Source: Shigella phage TB004
Sequence record: MW822011
DNA length: 64,000 nucleotides
Reading direction: 5' to 3' (one strand)
Positions 5,386-35,395 of the stretch are shown here, in pieces. The position numbers and the translations under genes were made by a program. Numbering within the stretch: position 1 is the first letter of the stretch; every line of letters begins with the position of its first letter. Under the pieces are notes generated by a model that did not search any database, was not told where the DNA came from, and was given only the letters and a program-made list of their open reading frames with translations.

Positions 5386-5482
5386 ATATGCTTTAAGAAA
5401 TATTTGTTATTATTAACTCATATCGCACTGATTAATACCCTCTATCATCAAGGGTTCTTGCTTGAGAGCCTTTGTTAATAAT

Positions 5483-5555
5483 TGGGAATTAGCCAAGTTG
5501 GTAAGGCACTGGATTTTGATTCCAGGATGCAAAGGTTCGAGTCCTTTATTCCCAG
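5483..5555 (+). tRNA. tRNA-Gln (anticodon UUG)
   Basis: cloverleaf; acceptor tgggaat/attccca; anticodon loop ttTTGat; GGTTCGAGTCC T-arm. Confidence 0.8.
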
Positions 5556-5556
5556 C

Positions 5557-5643
5557 GCGAGAATGGTCAAATTGGTAAAGGCACAGCACTTAAAATGCTG
5601 CGGAATGATTTCCTTGTGGGTTCGAGTCCCACTTCTCGCACCA
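5557..5643 (+). tRNA. tRNA-Leu (anticodon UAA)
   Basis: type II tRNA with long variable arm; loop cTTAAaa; ends CCA. Confidence 0.8.
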
Positions 5644-5648
5644 AATTT

Positions 5649-5722
<74 letters not shown>

Positions 5723-5732
5723 ATTTAATTTA

Positions 5733-5806
5733 CTCCGTGTAGCTCAGTTTGGTAGAGCGTCTGCTTTGGGAGCAGAATGTCGCAGGTTCAAATCCTGCCG
5801 CGGAGA
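5733..5806 (+). tRNA. tRNA-Pro (anticodon UGG)
   Basis: acceptor ctccgtg/cgcggag; loop ttTGGga. Confidence 0.8.
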
Positions 5807-5808
5807 CT

Positions 5809-5898
5809 GGAGGCGTGGCAGAGTGGTTTAATGCACCGGTCTTGAAAACCGGCAGTCGCTCCGGCGACTCATAGGTTCAAATCCTATCGCCTCCGCCA
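5809..5898 (+). tRNA. tRNA-Ser (anticodon UGA)
   Basis: type II tRNA; acceptor ggaggcg/cgcctcc; loop ctTGAaa; CCA encoded. Confidence 0.8.
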
Positions 5899-5903
5899 GT
5901 TTT

Positions 5904-5976
5904 GCTGATTTAGCTCAGTAGGTAGAGCAACTCACTTGTAATGAGAAGGTCGGCGGTTCGATTCCGTCAATCAGCA
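5904..5976 (+). tRNA. tRNA-Thr (anticodon UGU)
   Basis: acceptor gctgatt/aatcagc; loop ctTGTaa; CCA encoded. Confidence 0.8.
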
Positions 5977-5977
5977 C

Positions 5978-6055
5978 CAAGGCCCTGTAGCTGGAAGGTT
6001 CAAGCAAGCGACTCATAATCGCCAGATGGTGGTTCAATTCCACCCAGGGCCACCA
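5978..6055 (+). tRNA. tRNA with CAU anticodon (Ile, lysidine type, or Met)
   Basis: acceptor ggccctg/cagggcc; loop ctCATaa; CCA encoded. Confidence 0.7.
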
Positions 6056-6068
6056 AATTAAGAATTAA

Positions 6069-6155
6069 GGGGAGTTATCCCGTAGAGGTAGCGGTGTGGA
6101 CTGTAAATCCATTGTCATTGCGACTCGGGTGGTTCGACTCCATCACTCCCCACCA
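6069..6155 (+). tRNA. tRNA-Tyr (anticodon GUA)
   Basis: type II cloverleaf; acceptor ggggagt/actcccc; loop ctGTAaa; variable arm resembles E. coli tRNA-Tyr; CCA encoded. Confidence 0.65.
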
Positions 6156-6159
6156 ATTT

Positions 6160-6234
6160 GGATGTGTAGCTCAGTGGTAGAGCAGTTGACTGTTAATCAA
6201 TTGGTCCATGGTTCGAATCCATGCATGTCCGCCA
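6160..6234 (+). tRNA. tRNA-Asn (anticodon GUU)
   Basis: acceptor ggatgtg/catgtcc with two G-U pairs; loop ctGTTaa; T-arm GGTTCGAATCC; CCA encoded. Confidence 0.6.
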
Positions 6235-6359
6235 AATTTGTGACAACTGTCACATTAATATCTACTTGACGCGATTATAGGGTTGAACTGATCACTCTTC
6301 TCTTAATTTCGTGTGAAGACATCTTGATTGTTGGAGTAGGTATTAATGTGAACTAATTA

Positions 6360-12476: not shown

Positions 12477-13044
12477 ATGAAAACCTATAAAGAATTTATC
12501 GCTGGAAAAGGCCAAAGGCATTAATAAAGATGAGTGGACTTACCGAGGAAACGGCTTTGACCCTAAAACAGCCCCTATTGAACGATACTTAGCTACAAAA
12601 GCTTCCGACTTTAAAGCTTTCGCTTGGGAAGGACTTCGCTGGCGTACCGATCTAAATATTGAAGTTGATGGGCTTAAATTTGGCCATATTCAAGATGTTG
12701 TTGCTAGTAACTTGGATGCAGCTTTTGTTAAAGCTGACGGTGACCTTCGTCGCTGGAATTTAAAACTATTCTCTAAACAGAAAGGCCCGGTGTTTGTGCC
12801 TAAAGCTGGTAAATGGGTTATTGATAATAAATTAGCTAAGGCTGTCAACTACGCTGGTCTTGAATTCGCCAAGCATAAATCATCATGGAAAGGTCTTGAT
12901 GCAATGGCCTTCCGTAAAGAATTTGCTGATGTTATGGCTAAAGGCGGCTTTAAGGCAGAAATAGATACCTCTAAAGGTACGTTTAAAGACGCTAATGTTC
13001 AGTACGCTTACGCTGTTGCTAATGCAGCCCGTGGTAATTCTTAA
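12477..13044 (+). pseudogene. ipIII: internal protein III gene, frameshifted after the capsid targeting sequence
   Basis: MKTYKEFIA then stop after 15 codons; remainder of IPIII-like sequence open in +1 frame; one extra G near 12504. Confidence 0.55.
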
Positions 13045-13152
13045 TAAAGCCGAGTTCGAACCCGGTAATAGATAAATATAGAAACAGACAATTCGCACGC
13101 ATGAATTGTCCCAAACTTAAAGAATAAAACTATTTACATTTAAAGGAAACAC

Positions 13153-13455
13153 ATGAAAACATATCAAGAATTTATTACTGAAGCGCGAGTGAGTGCAGGT
13201 AAATTAGAAGCCGCTATAAATAAAAAGGCCCATTCATTTCACGATTTGTCCGATAAAGACCGTAAGAAACTTGTAAGCCTTTATATTGACAAAGAGCGTA
13301 TTCTCGCTCTTCCTGGCGCTAATGAAGGTAAACAGGCCAAGCCTTTGAATGCTGTCGAAAAGAAAATTGATAACTTTGCTTCTAAATTCGGTATGTCTAT
13401 GGATGACCTTCAGCAAGCGGCTATCGAAGCAGCTAAAGTAATTAAAGGTAAATAA
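13153..13455 (+). CDS. ipII: internal protein II
   Basis: 100 aa with CTS MKTYQEFITE; matches recalled T4 IPII. Confidence 0.8.
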   Translation: MKTYQEFITEARVSAGKLEAAINKKAHSFHDLSDKDRKKLVSLYIDKERILALPGANEGKQAKPLNAVEKKIDNFASKFGMSMDDLQQAAIEAAKVIKGK

Positions 13456-13512
13456 CAGTTTACTTTCTCCTAGAATTGTGATAGTATATTCATAATTACT
13501 TGGAGGGGTAAA

Positions 13513-13877
13513 ATGACTCGTATTAATTTGACTTTAGTATCTGAACTTGCTGATCAACATTTAATCGCGGAATACCATGAATTGCCGCGTGTTTTTGATA
13601 TAATTCGTAAACACGCGGCAAATGGAAAAATGATTATAATCCATGCAAATCAGCTATTAAGTTGAGTCAACAACGACTCGATGAAAAAATTTTAATGAAG
13701 CCGCATTGGTATAAGTATTACGGCAAAAATATTTACATTCAAATAACATGGGAACAAGCTGGACCTCATGATTCTGTGAGGGATTCCCGCCAACCTGTAA
13801 TAAGGTCGAGCCCAAGTGCGGTAATGGGTAAATACAGAAATGGACAATTCATGCGCCACGGAATGGCCCAAATTTAG
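13513..13877 (+). pseudogene. denV: denV (endonuclease V) remnant with internal out-of-frame deletion
   Basis: N-terminal 39 aa match T4 EndoV, then frame breaks; C-terminal ...SQQRLDEKI..WYKYYGK.IY in another frame. Confidence 0.6.
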
Positions 13878-13887
13878 AGATAACAAA

Positions 13888-14427
13888 ATGAGAACATTTT
13901 TAACTGGTCCTTATCTATCCCTGATGAATGCTTTTACACACCATTCTGATGCTAGAGTAGAAGAAATTTGTAAAAATGATTATATCCCACCATTCGAAGA
14001 CTTACTCAAACAGTATTGCACACTTCGACTAGATGGTGGACGTCAATCCGGTAAATCAACTGCAGTAACTAATTTTGCCGCTAATTGGTTGTATGACGGT
14101 GGAACAGTTATTGTTCTTTCTAATACTTCAGCTTATGCTAAAATTTCTGCGGGCCACATTAAAAAAGAGTTTTCTCGTTATTCTAGCGATGATATTCGAT
14201 TCCGCTTATTTACCGATTCTGTCCGTAGTTTTATCGGTAATAAAGGAAGCAAGTTCAGAGGTTTATCGCTTTCGCGGATTTTGTATATAATCGATGAGCC
14301 TGTTAAATCTCCTGATATGGATAAAATTTACGATATTCATATTGAAACTGTGCACCACTGTTGCAATAGTAAATGCTGCATTGGTGGTATTACTCGTCCA
14401 CAGTTTTTCATAATCGGAATGCAATGA
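13888..14427 (+). CDS. P-loop NTPase-like protein
   Basis: Walker A GGRQSGKST and Walker B-like ILYIIDEP; 179 aa. Confidence 0.5.
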   Translation: MRTFLTGPYLSLMNAFTHHSDARVEEICKNDYIPPFEDLLKQYCTLRLDGGRQSGKSTAVTNFAANWLYDGGTVIVLSNTSAYAKISAGHIKKEFSRYSSDDIRFRLFTDSVRSFIGNKGSKFRGLSLSRILYIIDEPVKSPDMDKIYDIHIETVHHCCNSKCCIGGITRPQFFIIGMQ

Positions 14428-14753
14428 TGACAGACACGCAACTTTTCGAATATCTTTATTTTTCGCCAAAAACTATTAAAAATAAATTGGTGAATCATTT
14501 TGAAATTTTGGCAAATAACAACGTCTTGAGCGAATTTTATCCTAAGCAATACAAATTACAAAAAGGTGTATTCAAAGGATGCAGAGTTTTGTGCACTGCT
14601 CCTAATGCAAGATTAATGAATAAAATTCCATATTTTACCATGGAATTTATTGATGGGCCTTTTAAAGGACTAATTACCCAAAGTTTAATGGCATATGATT
14701 CTGAGCCATTTTTAATTAAAGAGCAATCTTGGATAAATTTATTTTCTAATTGA
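14424..14753 (+). CDS. hypothetical protein
   Basis: 109-aa ORF, start overlaps upstream stop (ATGATGA). Confidence 0.45.
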
Positions 14754-14761
14754 GAGGTTAT

Positions 14762-15124
14762 ATGAAAGCATATCAAATTCTTGAAGGCACGCATAAAGGT
14801 ACTATTTATTTTGAAGACGGTATTCAAGCACGAATTATTGTCTCTAAAACTTTTAAAGAGGACTCTTTTGTAGACCCAGAAATTTTCTATGGTTTGCATG
14901 CCCGTGAAATTGAAATTGAAACACAACCTACAGTTAAAATTGAGGGTGGTCAACACCTGAACGTTAACGTTCTGCGTCGTGAAACTCTGGAAGATGCAGT
15001 TAAGCATCCGGAAAAATATCCACAGCTGACCATCCGTGTATCCGGTTATGCAGTTCGCTTTAACTCTCTGACTCCGGAACAACAGCGCGATGTTATCGCT
15101 CGTACCTTTACTGAGAGCCTGTAA
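14762..15124 (+). CDS. autonomous glycyl radical cofactor (GrcA/YfiD-like)
   Basis: C-terminal glycine radical motif [11 protein letters not shown]; last ~60 aa identical to recalled E. coli GrcA. Confidence 0.8.
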
Positions 15125-15345
15125 TGGCAAAGATAATTATTGAAGGTTCTGAAGATGTGTTAAATGCTTTCGCCGAGTGGTTTAGTAATTCAGGCGAACA
15201 GCAATTTAATGAAGCGTGGAATATGGGTGATATTGATGGAATTTATCCTACGACAGAAATTTCTGTTCAAGGATATGGAATTCATGAGCCTATTCGTTTA
15301 GTTGAATATGATTTAGGTACTGGTGAGGAAGTAAAATATGATTGA
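15124..15345 (+). CDS. hypothetical protein
   Basis: 73-aa ORF, overlapping start/stop. Confidence 0.45.
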   Translation: MAKIIIEGSEDVLNAFAEWFSNSGEQQFNEAWNMGDIDGIYPTTEISVQGYGIHEPIRLVEYDLGTGEEVKYD

Positions 15346-15604
15346 AGATATTAAGGGTTATAAGCCACATACTGAAGAGAAAATCGGTAAAGTGAATGCT
15401 ATTAAAGACGCTGAAGTTCGTTTAGGACTTATCTTTGATGCTTTATACGACGAATTCTGGGAAGTGCTAAATAATTGTGAAGACTATGAATTCGCGAAGA
15501 ATTATGCTGAAAGCATCGATCAGTTAACTATTGCTAAAACGAAACTCAAAGAAGCCAGTATGTGGGCTTGTCGTGCTGTGTTCCAACCAGAGGAAAAATA
15601 TTAA
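15338..15604 (+). CDS. hypothetical helical protein at vs.4 position (candidate Acb2-type nucleotide sponge)
   Basis: 88 aa; second ORF upstream of regB, matching recalled position of T4 vs.4. Confidence 0.35.
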
Positions 15605-15882
15605 TGGCTCAATTAAGCGCAGGGTTTGGTTATGAGTATTATACTGCCCCTCGTCGTGTATCTGTTGCTCCTAAGAAAATTCAAAGTCTTGATGACTTCC
15701 AGGAAGTAGTCCGTAAAGCTTTCCAGGACTATGCGCGTTATCTTAAAGAAGATTCACAGGACTGTCTCGAAGAAGATGAAATTGCTTACTATGAGCAGCG
15801 TCTTGAACAGCTTAAAAACCTACATGAGGTTCGTGCAGAAGTTTCAAAGTCTATGAATAAATTGATTAGATTTAAAGAATAA
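15604..15882 (+). CDS. hypothetical protein
   Basis: 92 aa from ATG 15604. Confidence 0.45.
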
Positions 15883-15884
15883 CT

Positions 15885-15915
15885 GTTTACTTTTCCTCTT
15901 GACTGTGGTATAATT
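15885..15915 (+). promoter_or_regulatory. early promoter upstream of regB
   Basis: GTTTAC -35 and TATAAT -10. Confidence 0.55.
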
Positions 15916-15941
15916 TTTCTATCAGTTAAGAGGAGAATAAC

Positions 15942-16403
15942 ATGACTATCAACACAGAAGTTTTTATCCGTCGAAATAAGCTCCGTCGTCACTTTGAGTC
16001 GGAGTTTCGTCAAATTAACAATGAGATTCGTGAGGCATCAAAAGCAGCAGGGGTCTCATCGTTTCATCTAAAATATTCTCAACATCTTCTTGATCGTGCA
16101 ATTCAACGGGAGATTGATGAGACATATGTTTTTGAATTATTCCACAAAATAAAAGACCATGTTTTAGAAGTTAATGAATTCCTGAGTATGCCTCCACGCC
16201 CTGATATTGACGAAGATTTTATTGATGGTGTTGAATATCGTCCTGGGCGTTTAGAAATCACAGATGGAAATCTTTGGCTTGGATTTACAGTTTGTAAACC
16301 TAATGCGAAGTTCAAAGACCCGTCGCTTCAATGCAGGATGGCAATTATCAATAGTCGTCGTTTACCGGGAAAGGCTTCTAAAGCAGTAATTAAAACTCAA
16401 TGA
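15942..16403 (+). CDS. regB: site-specific endoribonuclease RegB
   Basis: 153 aa; size and position between denV and tk match T4 regB. Confidence 0.7.
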   Translation: MTINTEVFIRRNKLRRHFESEFRQINNEIREASKAAGVSSFHLKYSQHLLDRAIQREIDETYVFELFHKIKDHVLEVNEFLSMPPRPDIDEDFIDGVEYRPGRLEITDGNLWLGFTVCKPNAKFKDPSLQCRMAIINSRRLPGKASKAVIKTQ

Positions 16404-16410
16404 GGTAAGC

Positions 16411-16956
16411 ATGAGAAAAGCACTACTCGCTGGTCTATTGGCCATTTCAATGATGGCACATAGCTCCGAGCATACTTTCAGTAATGTCCAACTCGATAAC
16501 ATGCGTTACGCGTATCAATTCGGGGAACAATTTTCTAAGGATGGAAAATATAAAACACATAAAAATATCCACAAGAGCGGATTAGGTCATATAATGGCTG
16601 CTATTTTATGGCAAGAAAGCTCCGGCGGAGTTAATTTAAAATCTAAACCAAAGCATCACGCCTATGGAATGTTCCAAAATTATTTGCCGACCATGCGAGC
16701 AAGAGTTAAGGAACTTGGTTATAATATGACCGATGCCGAAATAAAAAGAATGTTGAATAAACGGTCCAATTCAGCTTCCTGGGCGTACATTGAACTTTCT
16801 TATTGGTTAAATATACATAAGGGCGATATAAGAAAAGCAATATCCTCTTATAATTCGGGATGGAATGTTAAAGCAGGTTCTAAATATGCTTCTGAAGTCC
16901 TAGAAAAGGCTAACTACCTTAAAAATAATAAACTACTGGAAATAGTAAATGACTAA
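16411..16956 (+). CDS. secreted lytic transglycosylase (SLT domain)
   Basis: signal peptide; SLT motifs WQESSGG, YGMFQ, SYNSGW. Confidence 0.65.
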   Translation: MRKALLAGLLAISMMAHSSEHTFSNVQLDNMRYAYQFGEQFSKDGKYKTHKNIHKSGLGHIMAAILWQESSGGVNLKSKPKHHAYGMFQNYLPTMRARVKELGYNMTDAEIKRMLNKRSNSASWAYIELSYWLNIHKGDIRKAISSYNSGWNVKAGSKYASEVLEKANYLKNNKLLEIVND

Positions 16957-33107: not shown

Positions 33108-33581
33108 ATGTTATTGACTGGCAAATTATACAAAGAAGAAAAACAGAAATTTTATGATGCACAAAACGGTAAATGCTTAATTTGCCAACGAGAACTAAAT
33201 CCTGATGTTCAAGCTAATCACCTTGACCATGACCATGAATTAAATGGACCAAAAGCAGGAAAGGTACGTGGGTTGCTATGTAATCTCTGCAATGCTGCAG
33301 AAGGTCAAATGAAACATAAATTTAATCGTTCTGGCTTAAAGGGACAAGGTGTTGATTATCTTGAATGGTTAGAAAATTTACTTACTTATTTAAAATCCGA
33401 TTACACCCAAAATAATATTCACCCTAACTTTGTTGGAGATAAATCAAAGGAATTTTCTCGTTTAGGAAAAGAGGAAATGATGGCTGAGATGCTTCAAAGA
33501 GGATTTGAATATAATGAATTTGACACTAAAACACAATTAATAGCTTCATTTAAGAAGCAGCTTAGAAAGAGTTTAAAATGA
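33108..33581 (+). CDS. 49: endonuclease VII (Holliday junction resolvase) gp49
   Basis: 157 aa, Cys/His zinc motif CLIC...HLDHDH...CNLCN; matches T4 Endo VII. Confidence 0.9.
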   Translation: MLLTGKLYKEEKQKFYDAQNGKCLICQRELNPDVQANHLDHDHELNGPKAGKVRGLLCNLCNAAEGQMKHKFNRSGLKGQGVDYLEWLENLLTYLKSDYTQNNIHPNFVGDKSKEFSRLGKEEMMAEMLQRGFEYNEFDTKTQLIASFKKQLRKSLK

Positions 33582-35395
33582 CAATTGAAAAAGAAATTGA
33601 AGGATTGATTCATAAAACTAATAAAGACCTTTTAAACGAGAATGCTAATAAAGATTCTCGTGTTTTTCCAACTCAACGGGACCTTATGGCTGGTATTGTG
33701 TCTAAGCACATTGCCAAAAATATGGTCCCGTCTTTTATTATGAAAGCACATGAAAGCGGAATCATTCACGTGCATGATATTGATTATTCTCCTGCTCTTC
33801 CGTTTACTAATTGCTGTTTAGTAGATTTAAAAGGAATGCTTGAAAACGGATTTAAATTAGGCAATGCACAGATTGAAACTCCTAAATCAATCGGTGTTGC
33901 TACTGCAATTATGGCACAAATTACTGCACAGGTTGCTTCCCATCAATACGGCGGAACGACTTTTGCGAATGTAGACAAAGTACTTTCTCCTTATGTTAAA
34001 CGCACCTATGCAAAACATATTGAAGATGCAGAAAAATGGCAAATCGCTGATGCGTTGAATTATGCCCAATCTAAAACAGAAAAAGACGTATACGATGCGT
34101 TCCAAGCTTATGAATATGAAGTAAATACTCTCTTTAGTTCAAACGGACAAACTCCTTTTGTAACAATTACATTTGGTACGGGAACTGACTGGACTGAACG
34201 AATGATTCAGAAAGCAATTCTGAAAAATCGCATTAAAGGTCTTGGCCGCGACGGGATAACTCCTATTTTCCCTAAACTTGTTATGTTTGTTGAAGAAGGT
34301 GTTAATCTTTATAAAGACGATCCGAACTATGATATTAAGCAGCTTGCTCTAGAGTGTGCAAGCAAAAGAATGTATCCTGATATTATTTCAGCTAAGAACA
34401 ATAAAGCTATCACCGGTTCATCTATTCCTGTTTCTCCAATGGGTTGCCGTAGTTTCTTGAGCGTATGGAAAGATTCGACTGGTAATGAAATTCTTGATGG
34501 ACGTAATAATCTTGGCGTTGTAACACTGAATCTTCCTCGTATTGCATTAGATTCTTATATTGGAACACAGTTCAATGAACAGAAATTTGCCGAATTGTTC
34601 AATGAACGAATGGATTTGTGTTTTGAAGCATTGATGTGTAGAATTAGTTCATTAAAAGGAGTTAAATCTACTGTTGCTCCTATTCTTTACCAAGAAGGTG
34701 CATTCGGGGTTCGTCTTAAACCCGATGATGATATAATTGAGTTATTTAAAAACGGTAGAAGTTCAGTATCCCTAGGATACATTGGTATTCACGAATTGAA
34801 TATTCTTGTCGGTCGTGATATTGGTCAGGAAATTTTAACTAAAATGAATGCACATCTTAAGCAGTGGACTGAAAGAACTGGTTTTGCTTTTAGCTTGTAT
34901 TCTACACCTGCTGAAAACCTGTGTTATCGCTTCTGTAAACTCGATACCGAAAAATATGGAAGTGTAAAGGATGTTACTGATAAAGGCTGGTACACTAACA
35001 GTTTCCATGTTTCAGTAGAAGAAAATATCACTCCGTTTGAAAAGATTTCTCGCGAAGCGCCATATCATTTCATTGCGACAGGTGGTCACATTTCTTATGT
35101 TGAACTTCCTGATATGAAAAATAACCTAAAGGGTCTTGAGGCTGTATGGGATTATGCTGCACAACATTTAGATTATTTTGGTGTTAATATGCCAGTAGAT
35201 AAATGTTTTACATGTGGAAGTACCCATGAAATGACTCCTACTGAAAACGGATTTGTTTGTTCTATTTGTGGAGAAACTGATCCTAAAAAGATGAACACAA
35301 TAAGAAGAACATGCGGATATTTGGGAAACCCGAACGAACGCGGATTTAATCTTGGTAAAAATAAAGAAATCATGCATAGGGTTAAACACCAATGA
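33578..35395 (+). CDS. nrdD: anaerobic ribonucleotide reductase NrdD (uninterrupted)
   Basis: 605 aa; C-terminal glycyl radical motif RRTCGYLGNP; no intron break. Confidence 0.9.
   Translation: MTIEKEIEGLIHKTNKDLLNENANKDSRVFPTQRDLMAGIVSKHIAKNMVPSFIMKAHESGIIHVHDIDYSPALPFTNCCLVDLKGMLENGFKLGNAQIETPKSIGVATAIMAQITAQVASHQYGGTTFANVDKVLSPYVKRTYAKHIEDAEKWQIADALNYAQSKTEKDVYDAFQAYEYEVNTLFSSNGQTPFVTITFGTGTDWTERMIQKAILKNRIKGLGRDGITPIFPKLVMFVEEGVNLYKDDPNYDIKQLALECASKRMYPDIISAKNNKAITGSSIPVSPMGCRSFLSVWKDSTGNEILDGRNNLGVVTLNLPRIALDSYIGTQFNEQKFAELFNERMDLCFEALMCRISSLKGVKSTVAPILYQEGAFGVRLKPDDDIIELFKNGRSSVSLGYIGIHELNILVGRDIGQEILTKMNAHLKQWTERTGFAFSLYSTPAENLCYRFCKLDTEKYGSVKDVTDKGWYTNSFHVSVEENITPFEKISREAPYHFIATGGHISYVELPDMKNNLKGLEAVWDYAAQHLDYFGVNMPVDKCFTCGSTHEMTPTENGFVCSICGETDPKKMNTIRRTCGYLGNPNERGFNLGKNKEIMHRVKHQ

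Follow-up and report, generated by a model that had tools for sequence, protein, structure and literature searches.

In this study, we found that the vs.6 gene in a 64-kb stretch of DNA (64,000 nt, hereafter the window), which is a segment of a Tequatrovirus (T4-like) genome, is a mosaic. In an old phage grcA rich in AT, the E. coli allele very probably replaced the 3' domain, and the product would have a spare-part function. The last 60 residues of the window protein (EGGQHLN...TESL) are identical to E. coli GrcA; the initial annotation had said so of about 60 residues, and the alignment bears it out. At the nucleotide level, 178 of the 183 bases of positions 14942-15124 are those of E. coli grcA (97.3%), and all five differences are synonymous third-position changes. 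The synonymous-site identity in this tract exceeds what protein conservation supplies.

Identity of the gene and its phage-lineage 5' half

The coordinates 14762-15124 and the reading frame given by the initial annotation were right, with an ATG at 14762, a GAGG upstream of it and a TAA at 15122-15124. This start agrees with the annotated 363-nt vs.6 CDS of T4, RB69, and Killian. The window gene is 96.7% identical to T4 vs.6 over its full length and lies in the conserved block denV-vs.8-vs.7-vs.6-vs.5-vs.4-vs.3-regB-vs.1-vs of T4 and RB69. Its product shares 119 of 120 residues with T4 Y06I, with T54 in the window and P54 in T4. The ORF is the T4 vs.6 orthologue, and its product is Y06I, a GrcA/YfiD-like protein whose function has already been published. 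A search for promoters and terminators in 13000-16500 gave sites no commoner than in shuffled sequence and none specific to vs.6. The features of the gene are as follows.

14762-15124, + strand: vs.6/Y06I orthologue ORF, ATG at 14762 and TAA at 15122-15124, 120 aa
14754-14757, + strand: Shine-Dalgarno-like GAGG, 4 nt before the ATG, read off the sequence
14762-14941, + strand: phage-lineage 5' half, diverged GrcA N-terminal region, residues 1-60
14938-14950, + strand: putative left recombination junction at the first phage/host-common block, GTnGAAGGnGG, placed by maximum chi-square and codon alignment
14942-15124, + strand: host-derived tract with E. coli grcA as donor, the whole glycyl-radical domain (residues 61-120 plus stop)
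15044-15046, + strand: GGT codon of Gly95 in RVSGYAV, the predicted radical-bearing glycine by alignment to GrcA Gly102 and PflB Gly734
15113-15121, + strand: right boundary zone, where host-type and phage-type sites are mixed in the last three codons among related phages
15122-15126, + strand: TAATG stop/start overlap with vs.5, where host similarity stops

The window protein is a small stand-alone protein (about 14 kDa class) which ends in a PFL-type glycyl-radical domain with RVSGYAV. It matched the GrcA family TIGR04365 over residues 20-120 (E 1.4e-45) with 154.6 bits, which does not reach the curated cut-off of 170 bits because the N-terminal half is diverged. It also matched Pfam PF01228 (Gly_radical) over residues 60-101 (E 2.2e-18) and YfiD in PDB 6OWR (E 4.6e-42). 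In alignments, residues 58-120 correspond to PflB 697-759 and to the part of YfiD that is structured in 6OWR. The protein fits the structural definition of a GrcA-type protein, and Gly95 is predicted to be its radical site. The sole difference from Y06I, at residue 54, falls outside the radical domain. A previous report names two validated PFL spare-part proteins, Y06I and E. coli YfiD (PMC8683613, citing Wagner et al. 2001). The same report states that PFL-activating enzyme puts a glycyl radical on Y06I/YfiD, and that oxygen-cleaved PFL is bound and its activity restored (PMC8683613).

The N-terminal half had been described as AT-rich and only loosely GrcA-like, and both points were confirmed. 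As a single sequence it gave no meaningful match to NCBIfam and Pfam, and its homology to GrcA became apparent only by profile-profile comparison. When profiles of 10 phage and 8 bacterial N-terminal halves were compared with hhalign, the probability was 97.2% (E 4.5e-11), with 28% identity over 60 columns. The 5' half of the window gene is therefore a genuine diverged GrcA N-terminal region. Its nucleotide identity is 97-98% with T4 and Killian (Tequatrovirus), about 90% with RB69 (Mosigvirus), and 72-75% with Jiaodavirus and L009 phages, and it lies at 68-75% across T-even genera. The vs.6 homologues of T-even phages have a common genomic position, immediately 5' of the regB and vs.1 homologues. 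Since the 5' half is common to distant T-even genera at the same position, it is older than the tract. In five of the phage relatives, L009-L013, the 3' half has a GC of 0.39-0.42 and a GC3 of 0.21-0.30, its product departs from bacterial GrcA at 7-10 residues, and it looks like a native AT-rich phage 3' half that has been kept. The comparison with vs.6-position genes of other T-even phages proposed in the initial annotation gave a common 5' half and a discordant 3' tract.

We also observed that denV, the gene for the UV-repair enzyme endonuclease V, appears to be inactivated in the window. At 13513-13877, the ~44 N-terminal codons run out of frame into the C-terminal part, the joint being a shared AATGGAAAA repeat, and the gene lacks about 60 codons that T4 and Killian denV have. 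The remnants are a 50-aa ORF at 13513-13665 and a C-terminal piece at 13662-13877.

Boundaries and origin of the host-identical tract

When the window gene was compared by blastn with 5,426 complete E. coli genomes, query positions 179-363 alone matched, in 5,426 of 5,426 genomes and at 95-99% identity. Positions 14762-14941 had no blastn match in the same 5,426 genomes. Higher host identity in the 3' than in the 5' half was therefore present, as the initial annotation had expected of this search. In ungapped 30-nt windows 5' of 14942, identity to grcA was 17-57%, and it reached 73% only in the sole window that spans the junction. The 3' stretch had also been called GC-richer and the composition of the ORF non-uniform. 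GC was 0.33 and GC3 0.18 in the 5' part, compared to 0.49 and 0.41 in the tract, with the step at the junction. A GC as high as that of the tract was reached by just 0.6% of the 183-nt windows across the 64-kb window.

The left boundary was located with the maximum chi-square method, using the window gene, L009 (a phage relative with an unconverted 3' half) and E. coli grcA as the triplet. The breakpoint was placed at 14938-14950 (chi2 73.7, permutation p at most 5e-5). Left of it, 62 informative sites were phage-type and 8 host-type; right of it, 1 was phage-type and 36 were host-type. The identical breakpoint was obtained with two further phage references and with T4. The two halves were also phylogenetically discordant, the 5' half grouping with T-even phages and the 3' half with E. 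coli. At all 21 sites that separate E. coli from K. pneumoniae grcA, both the window and T4 have the E. coli state; the K. pneumoniae grcA used for comparison was taken from a chromosome labelled as plasmid.

At the right end, the 3' flank of E. coli grcA had no resemblance to the DNA past the vs.6 stop. The last three codons are GAG AGC CTG in the window, GAA AGT TTG in T4, and GAA AGC CTG in E. coli. In RB69 and L007 they are GAG AGT CTA, the same as in the phage-native L014 and KP15. All four combinations of the sites at 15115, 15118 and 15119 were found among related phages.

The other 63.8 kb of the window gave no chromosomal match by megablast against the E. coli genomes. The vs.6 tract is thus a rare host-identical segment in a virulent phage and the only E. 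coli-chromosome match in the 64-kb window. The sole other match in the E. coli collection was a cluster of Tyr/Thr/Asn-type tRNA genes at 6063-6220, within a GC-rich region at 5437-6308. These genes match tRNA genes on ~95-115 kb plasmids of 255 E. coli genomes at 84-90%; the plasmids are presumably phage-plasmids.

The initial annotation had left the choice between recombination with host grcA and strong selection on the domain. Protein identity is weak evidence here, because the 60 C-terminal residues are nearly invariant among 80 species of Enterobacterales and Pasteurellaceae, and the signal sits in the synonymous sites. This invariance, together with a dN of 0 in the tract of 10 of 11 phage copies (dS up to 0.30), is what could be said for a course without recombination, in which extreme purifying selection and convergent E. 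coli-preferred codons would mimic host identity. However, in three T-even-like contigs from IMG/VR (L014-L016), the 60-residue sequence is the same although 27 of 61 codons are unlike those of E. coli (83% nucleotide identity), compared to 5 of 61 in the window tract for the same peptide. Salmonella grcA is just 84% identical to E. coli in this stretch, with three amino-acid differences. Therefore, protein conservation leaves about 80-85% nucleotide identity, not 97-100%. The core of the T4 tract is nevertheless identical to E. coli at 171 of 171 positions, Klebsiella phages carry Klebsiella-specific synonymous states, and the transition at the junction is abrupt and not graded. Selection without recombination is thus extremely improbable, and selection alone does not account for the nucleotide identity of the tract. 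Recombination is the part of the earlier proposal that stood, with the abrupt in-frame junction, the synonymous identity, the composition and the discordance in its favor, and it is L014-L016 that tell against selection alone. Once in the phage, the tract is under strong purifying selection.

A second possibility is a recent capture of the complete E. coli grcA, followed by very rapid divergence of the N-terminal half once it was in the phage. The homology of this half to GrcA would agree with such a capture, as would the faster evolution of the N-terminal than the C-terminal half in bacteria too. However, distant T-even genera have the same 5' half in the same position at the identity given above. 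Between T4 and RB69, the tract has a dS of 0.09 compared to 0.39 for the 5' half (Fisher p=0.012), and GC3 steps from 0.18 to 0.41 exactly at the junction. Among the matches listed for E. coli grcA (752 phage records), none reaches grcA upstream of about nt 199. We regard a whole-gene capture as very unlikely, and prefer the replacement of the 3' domain in a resident phage gene.

Donor, direction and recurrence of the replacement

E. coli grcA is uniform in composition, with a GC of 0.47 in its 5' part and 0.49 in its 3' part. The identities of its 5' and 3' parts to those of other bacteria were 99.0 and 98.9% for Escherichia sp., 88 and 93% for Citrobacter, and 84.6 and 84.2% for Salmonella. 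Because of this uniform GC and the parallel divergence of both halves, the tract is native host sequence and foreign DNA in the phage genome. The transfer thus went from host to phage, with E. coli grcA as the donor. A phage-to-host transfer, or an assembly or contamination artefact from host reads, has nothing in its favor beyond the identity itself. Such an origin conflicts with the uniform composition of E. coli grcA, both halves of which track the species phylogeny, and with the host GC of the tract (0.49 in the E. coli type, 0.55-0.56 in the Klebsiella type). It also conflicts with the occurrence of the tract, with private substitutions and an in-frame junction, in over 600 phage genomes that were sequenced independently, T4, T2, and RB69 among them. 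We give reverse transfer or artefact next to no probability.

When E. coli grcA was searched against phage records by megablast, 752 matches were obtained, 624 of them at 95% identity or more, including T4, T2, and RB69. Among the matches listed at this level, every alignment begins at grcA nt 199-200. The E. coli-type tract is fixed across hundreds of T-even phages of E. coli. Identity of the core tract to E. coli was 171/171 in T4, 169/171 in RB69, 167/171 in the window, and 163/171 in Killian.

The age of the transfer was examined by comparing T4 with RB69. Six genes flanking vs.6 have a dS of 0.78-2.39 between the two phages, and the low dS of the tract compared to these genes indicates that the transfer is much younger than the Tequatrovirus/Mosigvirus (T4/RB69) split. 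Almost all differences of the phage tracts from E. coli are private to one phage, which places the E. coli allele at the center of a star. Among Tequatrovirus phages, divergence in the tract is no lower than in the 5' half. There was no clear AT bias (amelioration) in the phage-private substitutions among the few changes seen. A tract acquired once, in the distant common ancestor of Tequatrovirus and Mosigvirus, and inherited vertically since would account for the same left junction in every tract-bearing match from E. coli T-even phages listed at 95% or more. This junction is uninformative, because homology ends there anyway. The tract dS of 0.09 between T4 and RB69, the mostly private differences around the E. 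coli allele, and a tract divergence within Tequatrovirus that is not below that of the 5' half all count against one old event, which we consider improbable. The star-like genealogy, the patchwork right boundary and the low tract dS are instead signs that point to more than one exchange among E. coli phages. The genealogy contains 11 sequences, a number at which repeated host conversion and later phage-to-phage spread look alike.

The same architecture, an AT-rich 5' half joined to a host-like tract, was found in Jiaodavirus phages (JD18, RCIP0102, Merci, AM_K4, and the IMG/VR locus L028). GC of their vs.6 homologues is about 0.35-0.37 in the 5' half and 0.55-0.56 in the 3' tract. The core tract is identical to K. 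pneumoniae grcA at 161-166 of 171 positions and to E. coli at 144-151, and 15-20 of the 21 discriminating core sites have the Klebsiella state. The left junction is the same as in the E. coli type (grcA nt 200-202), and the 60 nt 5' of it are about 40% identical to K. pneumoniae grcA. On the right, the junction is about 25 nt short of the stop, and the gene has a phage-native ...FTEAL end. In total, 106 phage records were 95-99% identical to K. pneumoniae grcA. The replacement in Jiaodavirus was thus an independent second event with K. pneumoniae grcA as the donor. For phage Merci, which was isolated on K. aerogenes, a K. aerogenes donor was rejected, since the core matched K. aerogenes at 154 of 171 positions compared to 164 of 171 for K. 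pneumoniae.

We observed two labelling and annotation problems among the bacterial records. L169 (K. aerogenes NCTC10006 'plasmid 2', LR134122) and L168 (CP125156 'plasmid unnamed2', 5.37 Mb) are chromosomal sequence labelled as plasmid. The K. aerogenes grcA in L169 is annotated as truncated owing to one A too many in a homopolymer (GAAAAAATACC), probably an error of sequencing.

When grcA of Salmonella enterica and Enterobacter sichuanensis was searched against 50,697 phage records, just the E. coli-type tract was found, at 82-86% identity. A near-identical Salmonella-type or Enterobacter-type tract was absent from these 50,697 records. In the IMG/VR sample, the remaining phage groups had at most 84% identity to any of 80 bacterial grcA genes, a panel without many species. 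Some T-even phages of E. coli and Klebsiella have unconverted 3' halves (the RB43-type L018, KP15 L019, and L032). Given the absence of Salmonella and Enterobacter tracts and these unconverted T-even phages, the replacement is rare and not routine, yet once present it is fixed across whole genera.

The IMG/VR sample also contained other GrcA-like genes. L044-L070 (~104-122 kb) form a separate, widespread family of 122-aa GrcA-like proteins, and similarly sized Salmonella phage records also carry a gene of this type. Its radical domain looks more PflB-like (end FTQAM), and its DNA is 74-76% identical to any sampled bacterial grcA, which suggests an independent, older acquisition. In L036 and L038 (85-152 kb), the GrcA-like N-terminal half has an in-frame stop (…EARCIC*VNGKY…) and the radical domain is intact. 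Such a gene could be a pseudogene, have a recoded stop, or give a shorter product from a downstream start.

Proposed mechanism, function and known parallels

T-even phages degrade host DNA, and T4 recombines efficiently with homologous DNA in the cell, for instance when markers are rescued from plasmids. The position of the junctions leads us to infer that the mechanism was homologous (homeologous) recombination or gene conversion. The starting point would be the old AT-rich phage grcA copy, which many T-even genera carry in the same place. A host chromosome fragment could have paired with this resident phage homologue, and a heteroduplex or double crossover would then have spread over the whole region of usable similarity (about 80% between native phage and host). 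The exchange would have been bounded on the left by the overly diverged N-terminal coding region and on the right by the last codons of the gene. Since usable similarity begins at GTnGAAGGnGG, the two independent events have a common left junction at the domain boundary.

In the infected cell, the host PFL-activating enzyme may activate the C-terminal glycyl-radical domain of the window spare-part protein. The activated vs.6 domain would replace the oxygen-cleaved radical domain of host pyruvate formate-lyase, and conversion of pyruvate to acetyl-CoA and formate would be kept running under microaerobic conditions. The window also encodes a glycyl-radical enzyme of the phage itself, the anaerobic ribonucleotide reductase NrdD (605 aa, 33578-35395; NF006732, E 2.5e-272). 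Just upstream of it, a 157-aa ORF at 33108-33581 has a weak HNH-nuclease match. Class III ribonucleotide reductases use formate as reductant, and an active PFL would therefore supply energy and formate for dNTP synthesis. A functional link between vs.6 and NrdD through formate could thus exist, a connection which we draw ourselves.

A further idea is that in the strictly virulent T-even phages, the working domain of vs.6 is renewed again and again from the chromosome of the infected host and that selection favors this. We regard it as possible but doubtful. A benefit would presumably come from matching the host allele, as the exact GrcA radical domain resident in the cell would best fit the host PflB and PFL-activating enzyme. 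If true, this would account for the E. coli allele in E. coli phages and the Klebsiella allele in Klebsiella phages, and vs.6 would be a natural reporter of phage-chromosome recombination and of the evolutionary host. For uncultured T-even phages, the tract might also serve as a marker of their evolutionary host.

The gene and its biochemical role were already known. Nolan et al. 2006 noted the Gly_radical Pfam match and guessed a role in nucleotide metabolism, with no mention of a mosaic. We found no published description of the host-matched vs.6 mosaic in the full-text literature, and an earlier mention elsewhere is possible; its history is apparently unreported. A recent study chose 'grcA' as a core-gene PCR/qPCR target for Straboviridae typing (PMC12845203, 2026). 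Since the 3' half of this marker is 96-100% identical to the E. coli chromosome, primers placed there could amplify host DNA.

Among known genes, T4 vs.6 (Y06I) is the closest to the window gene in position, length and all residues but one. It has 2 synonymous differences from E. coli in the 183-nt tract, compared to 5 in the window, although the last codons of the window are more host-like than those of T4. E. coli GrcA/YfiD is likewise a small autonomous protein with the same C-terminal 60 residues and RVSGYAV, encoded by DNA 97.3% identical to the tract. The N-terminal half of the window protein, in contrast, is only about 28% identical to that of GrcA, 7 residues shorter, and AT-rich in its DNA. 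The Jiaodavirus homologue resembles the window gene in position, architecture and left junction, and differs in its K. pneumoniae donor (95-97%) and in a right junction about 25 nt before the stop. Because the replacement recurred with the same left junction, vs.6 offers a clear case of host-to-phage gene conversion in T-even phages of enterobacteria, and one that can be dated.

Intragenic recombination between host and phage was reportedly described by Zeidner and colleagues in 2005 for psbA and psbD of cyanophages. It was also proposed for psbA/psbD of T4-like cyanophages by Sullivan et al. 2006 (PMC1484495). The cyanophage psbA recombination is the closest parallel and is itself debated. 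Like vs.6, psbA and psbD are phage metabolic genes with patchy G+C and statistical signs of exchange with the host (PMC1484495). Unlike in the cyanophage genes, the donor species of the vs.6 tract is unambiguous, the tract is identical to the host at up to 171 of 171 positions, the junctions are placed within about 10 nt, and two phage genera have tracts that match their own host species.
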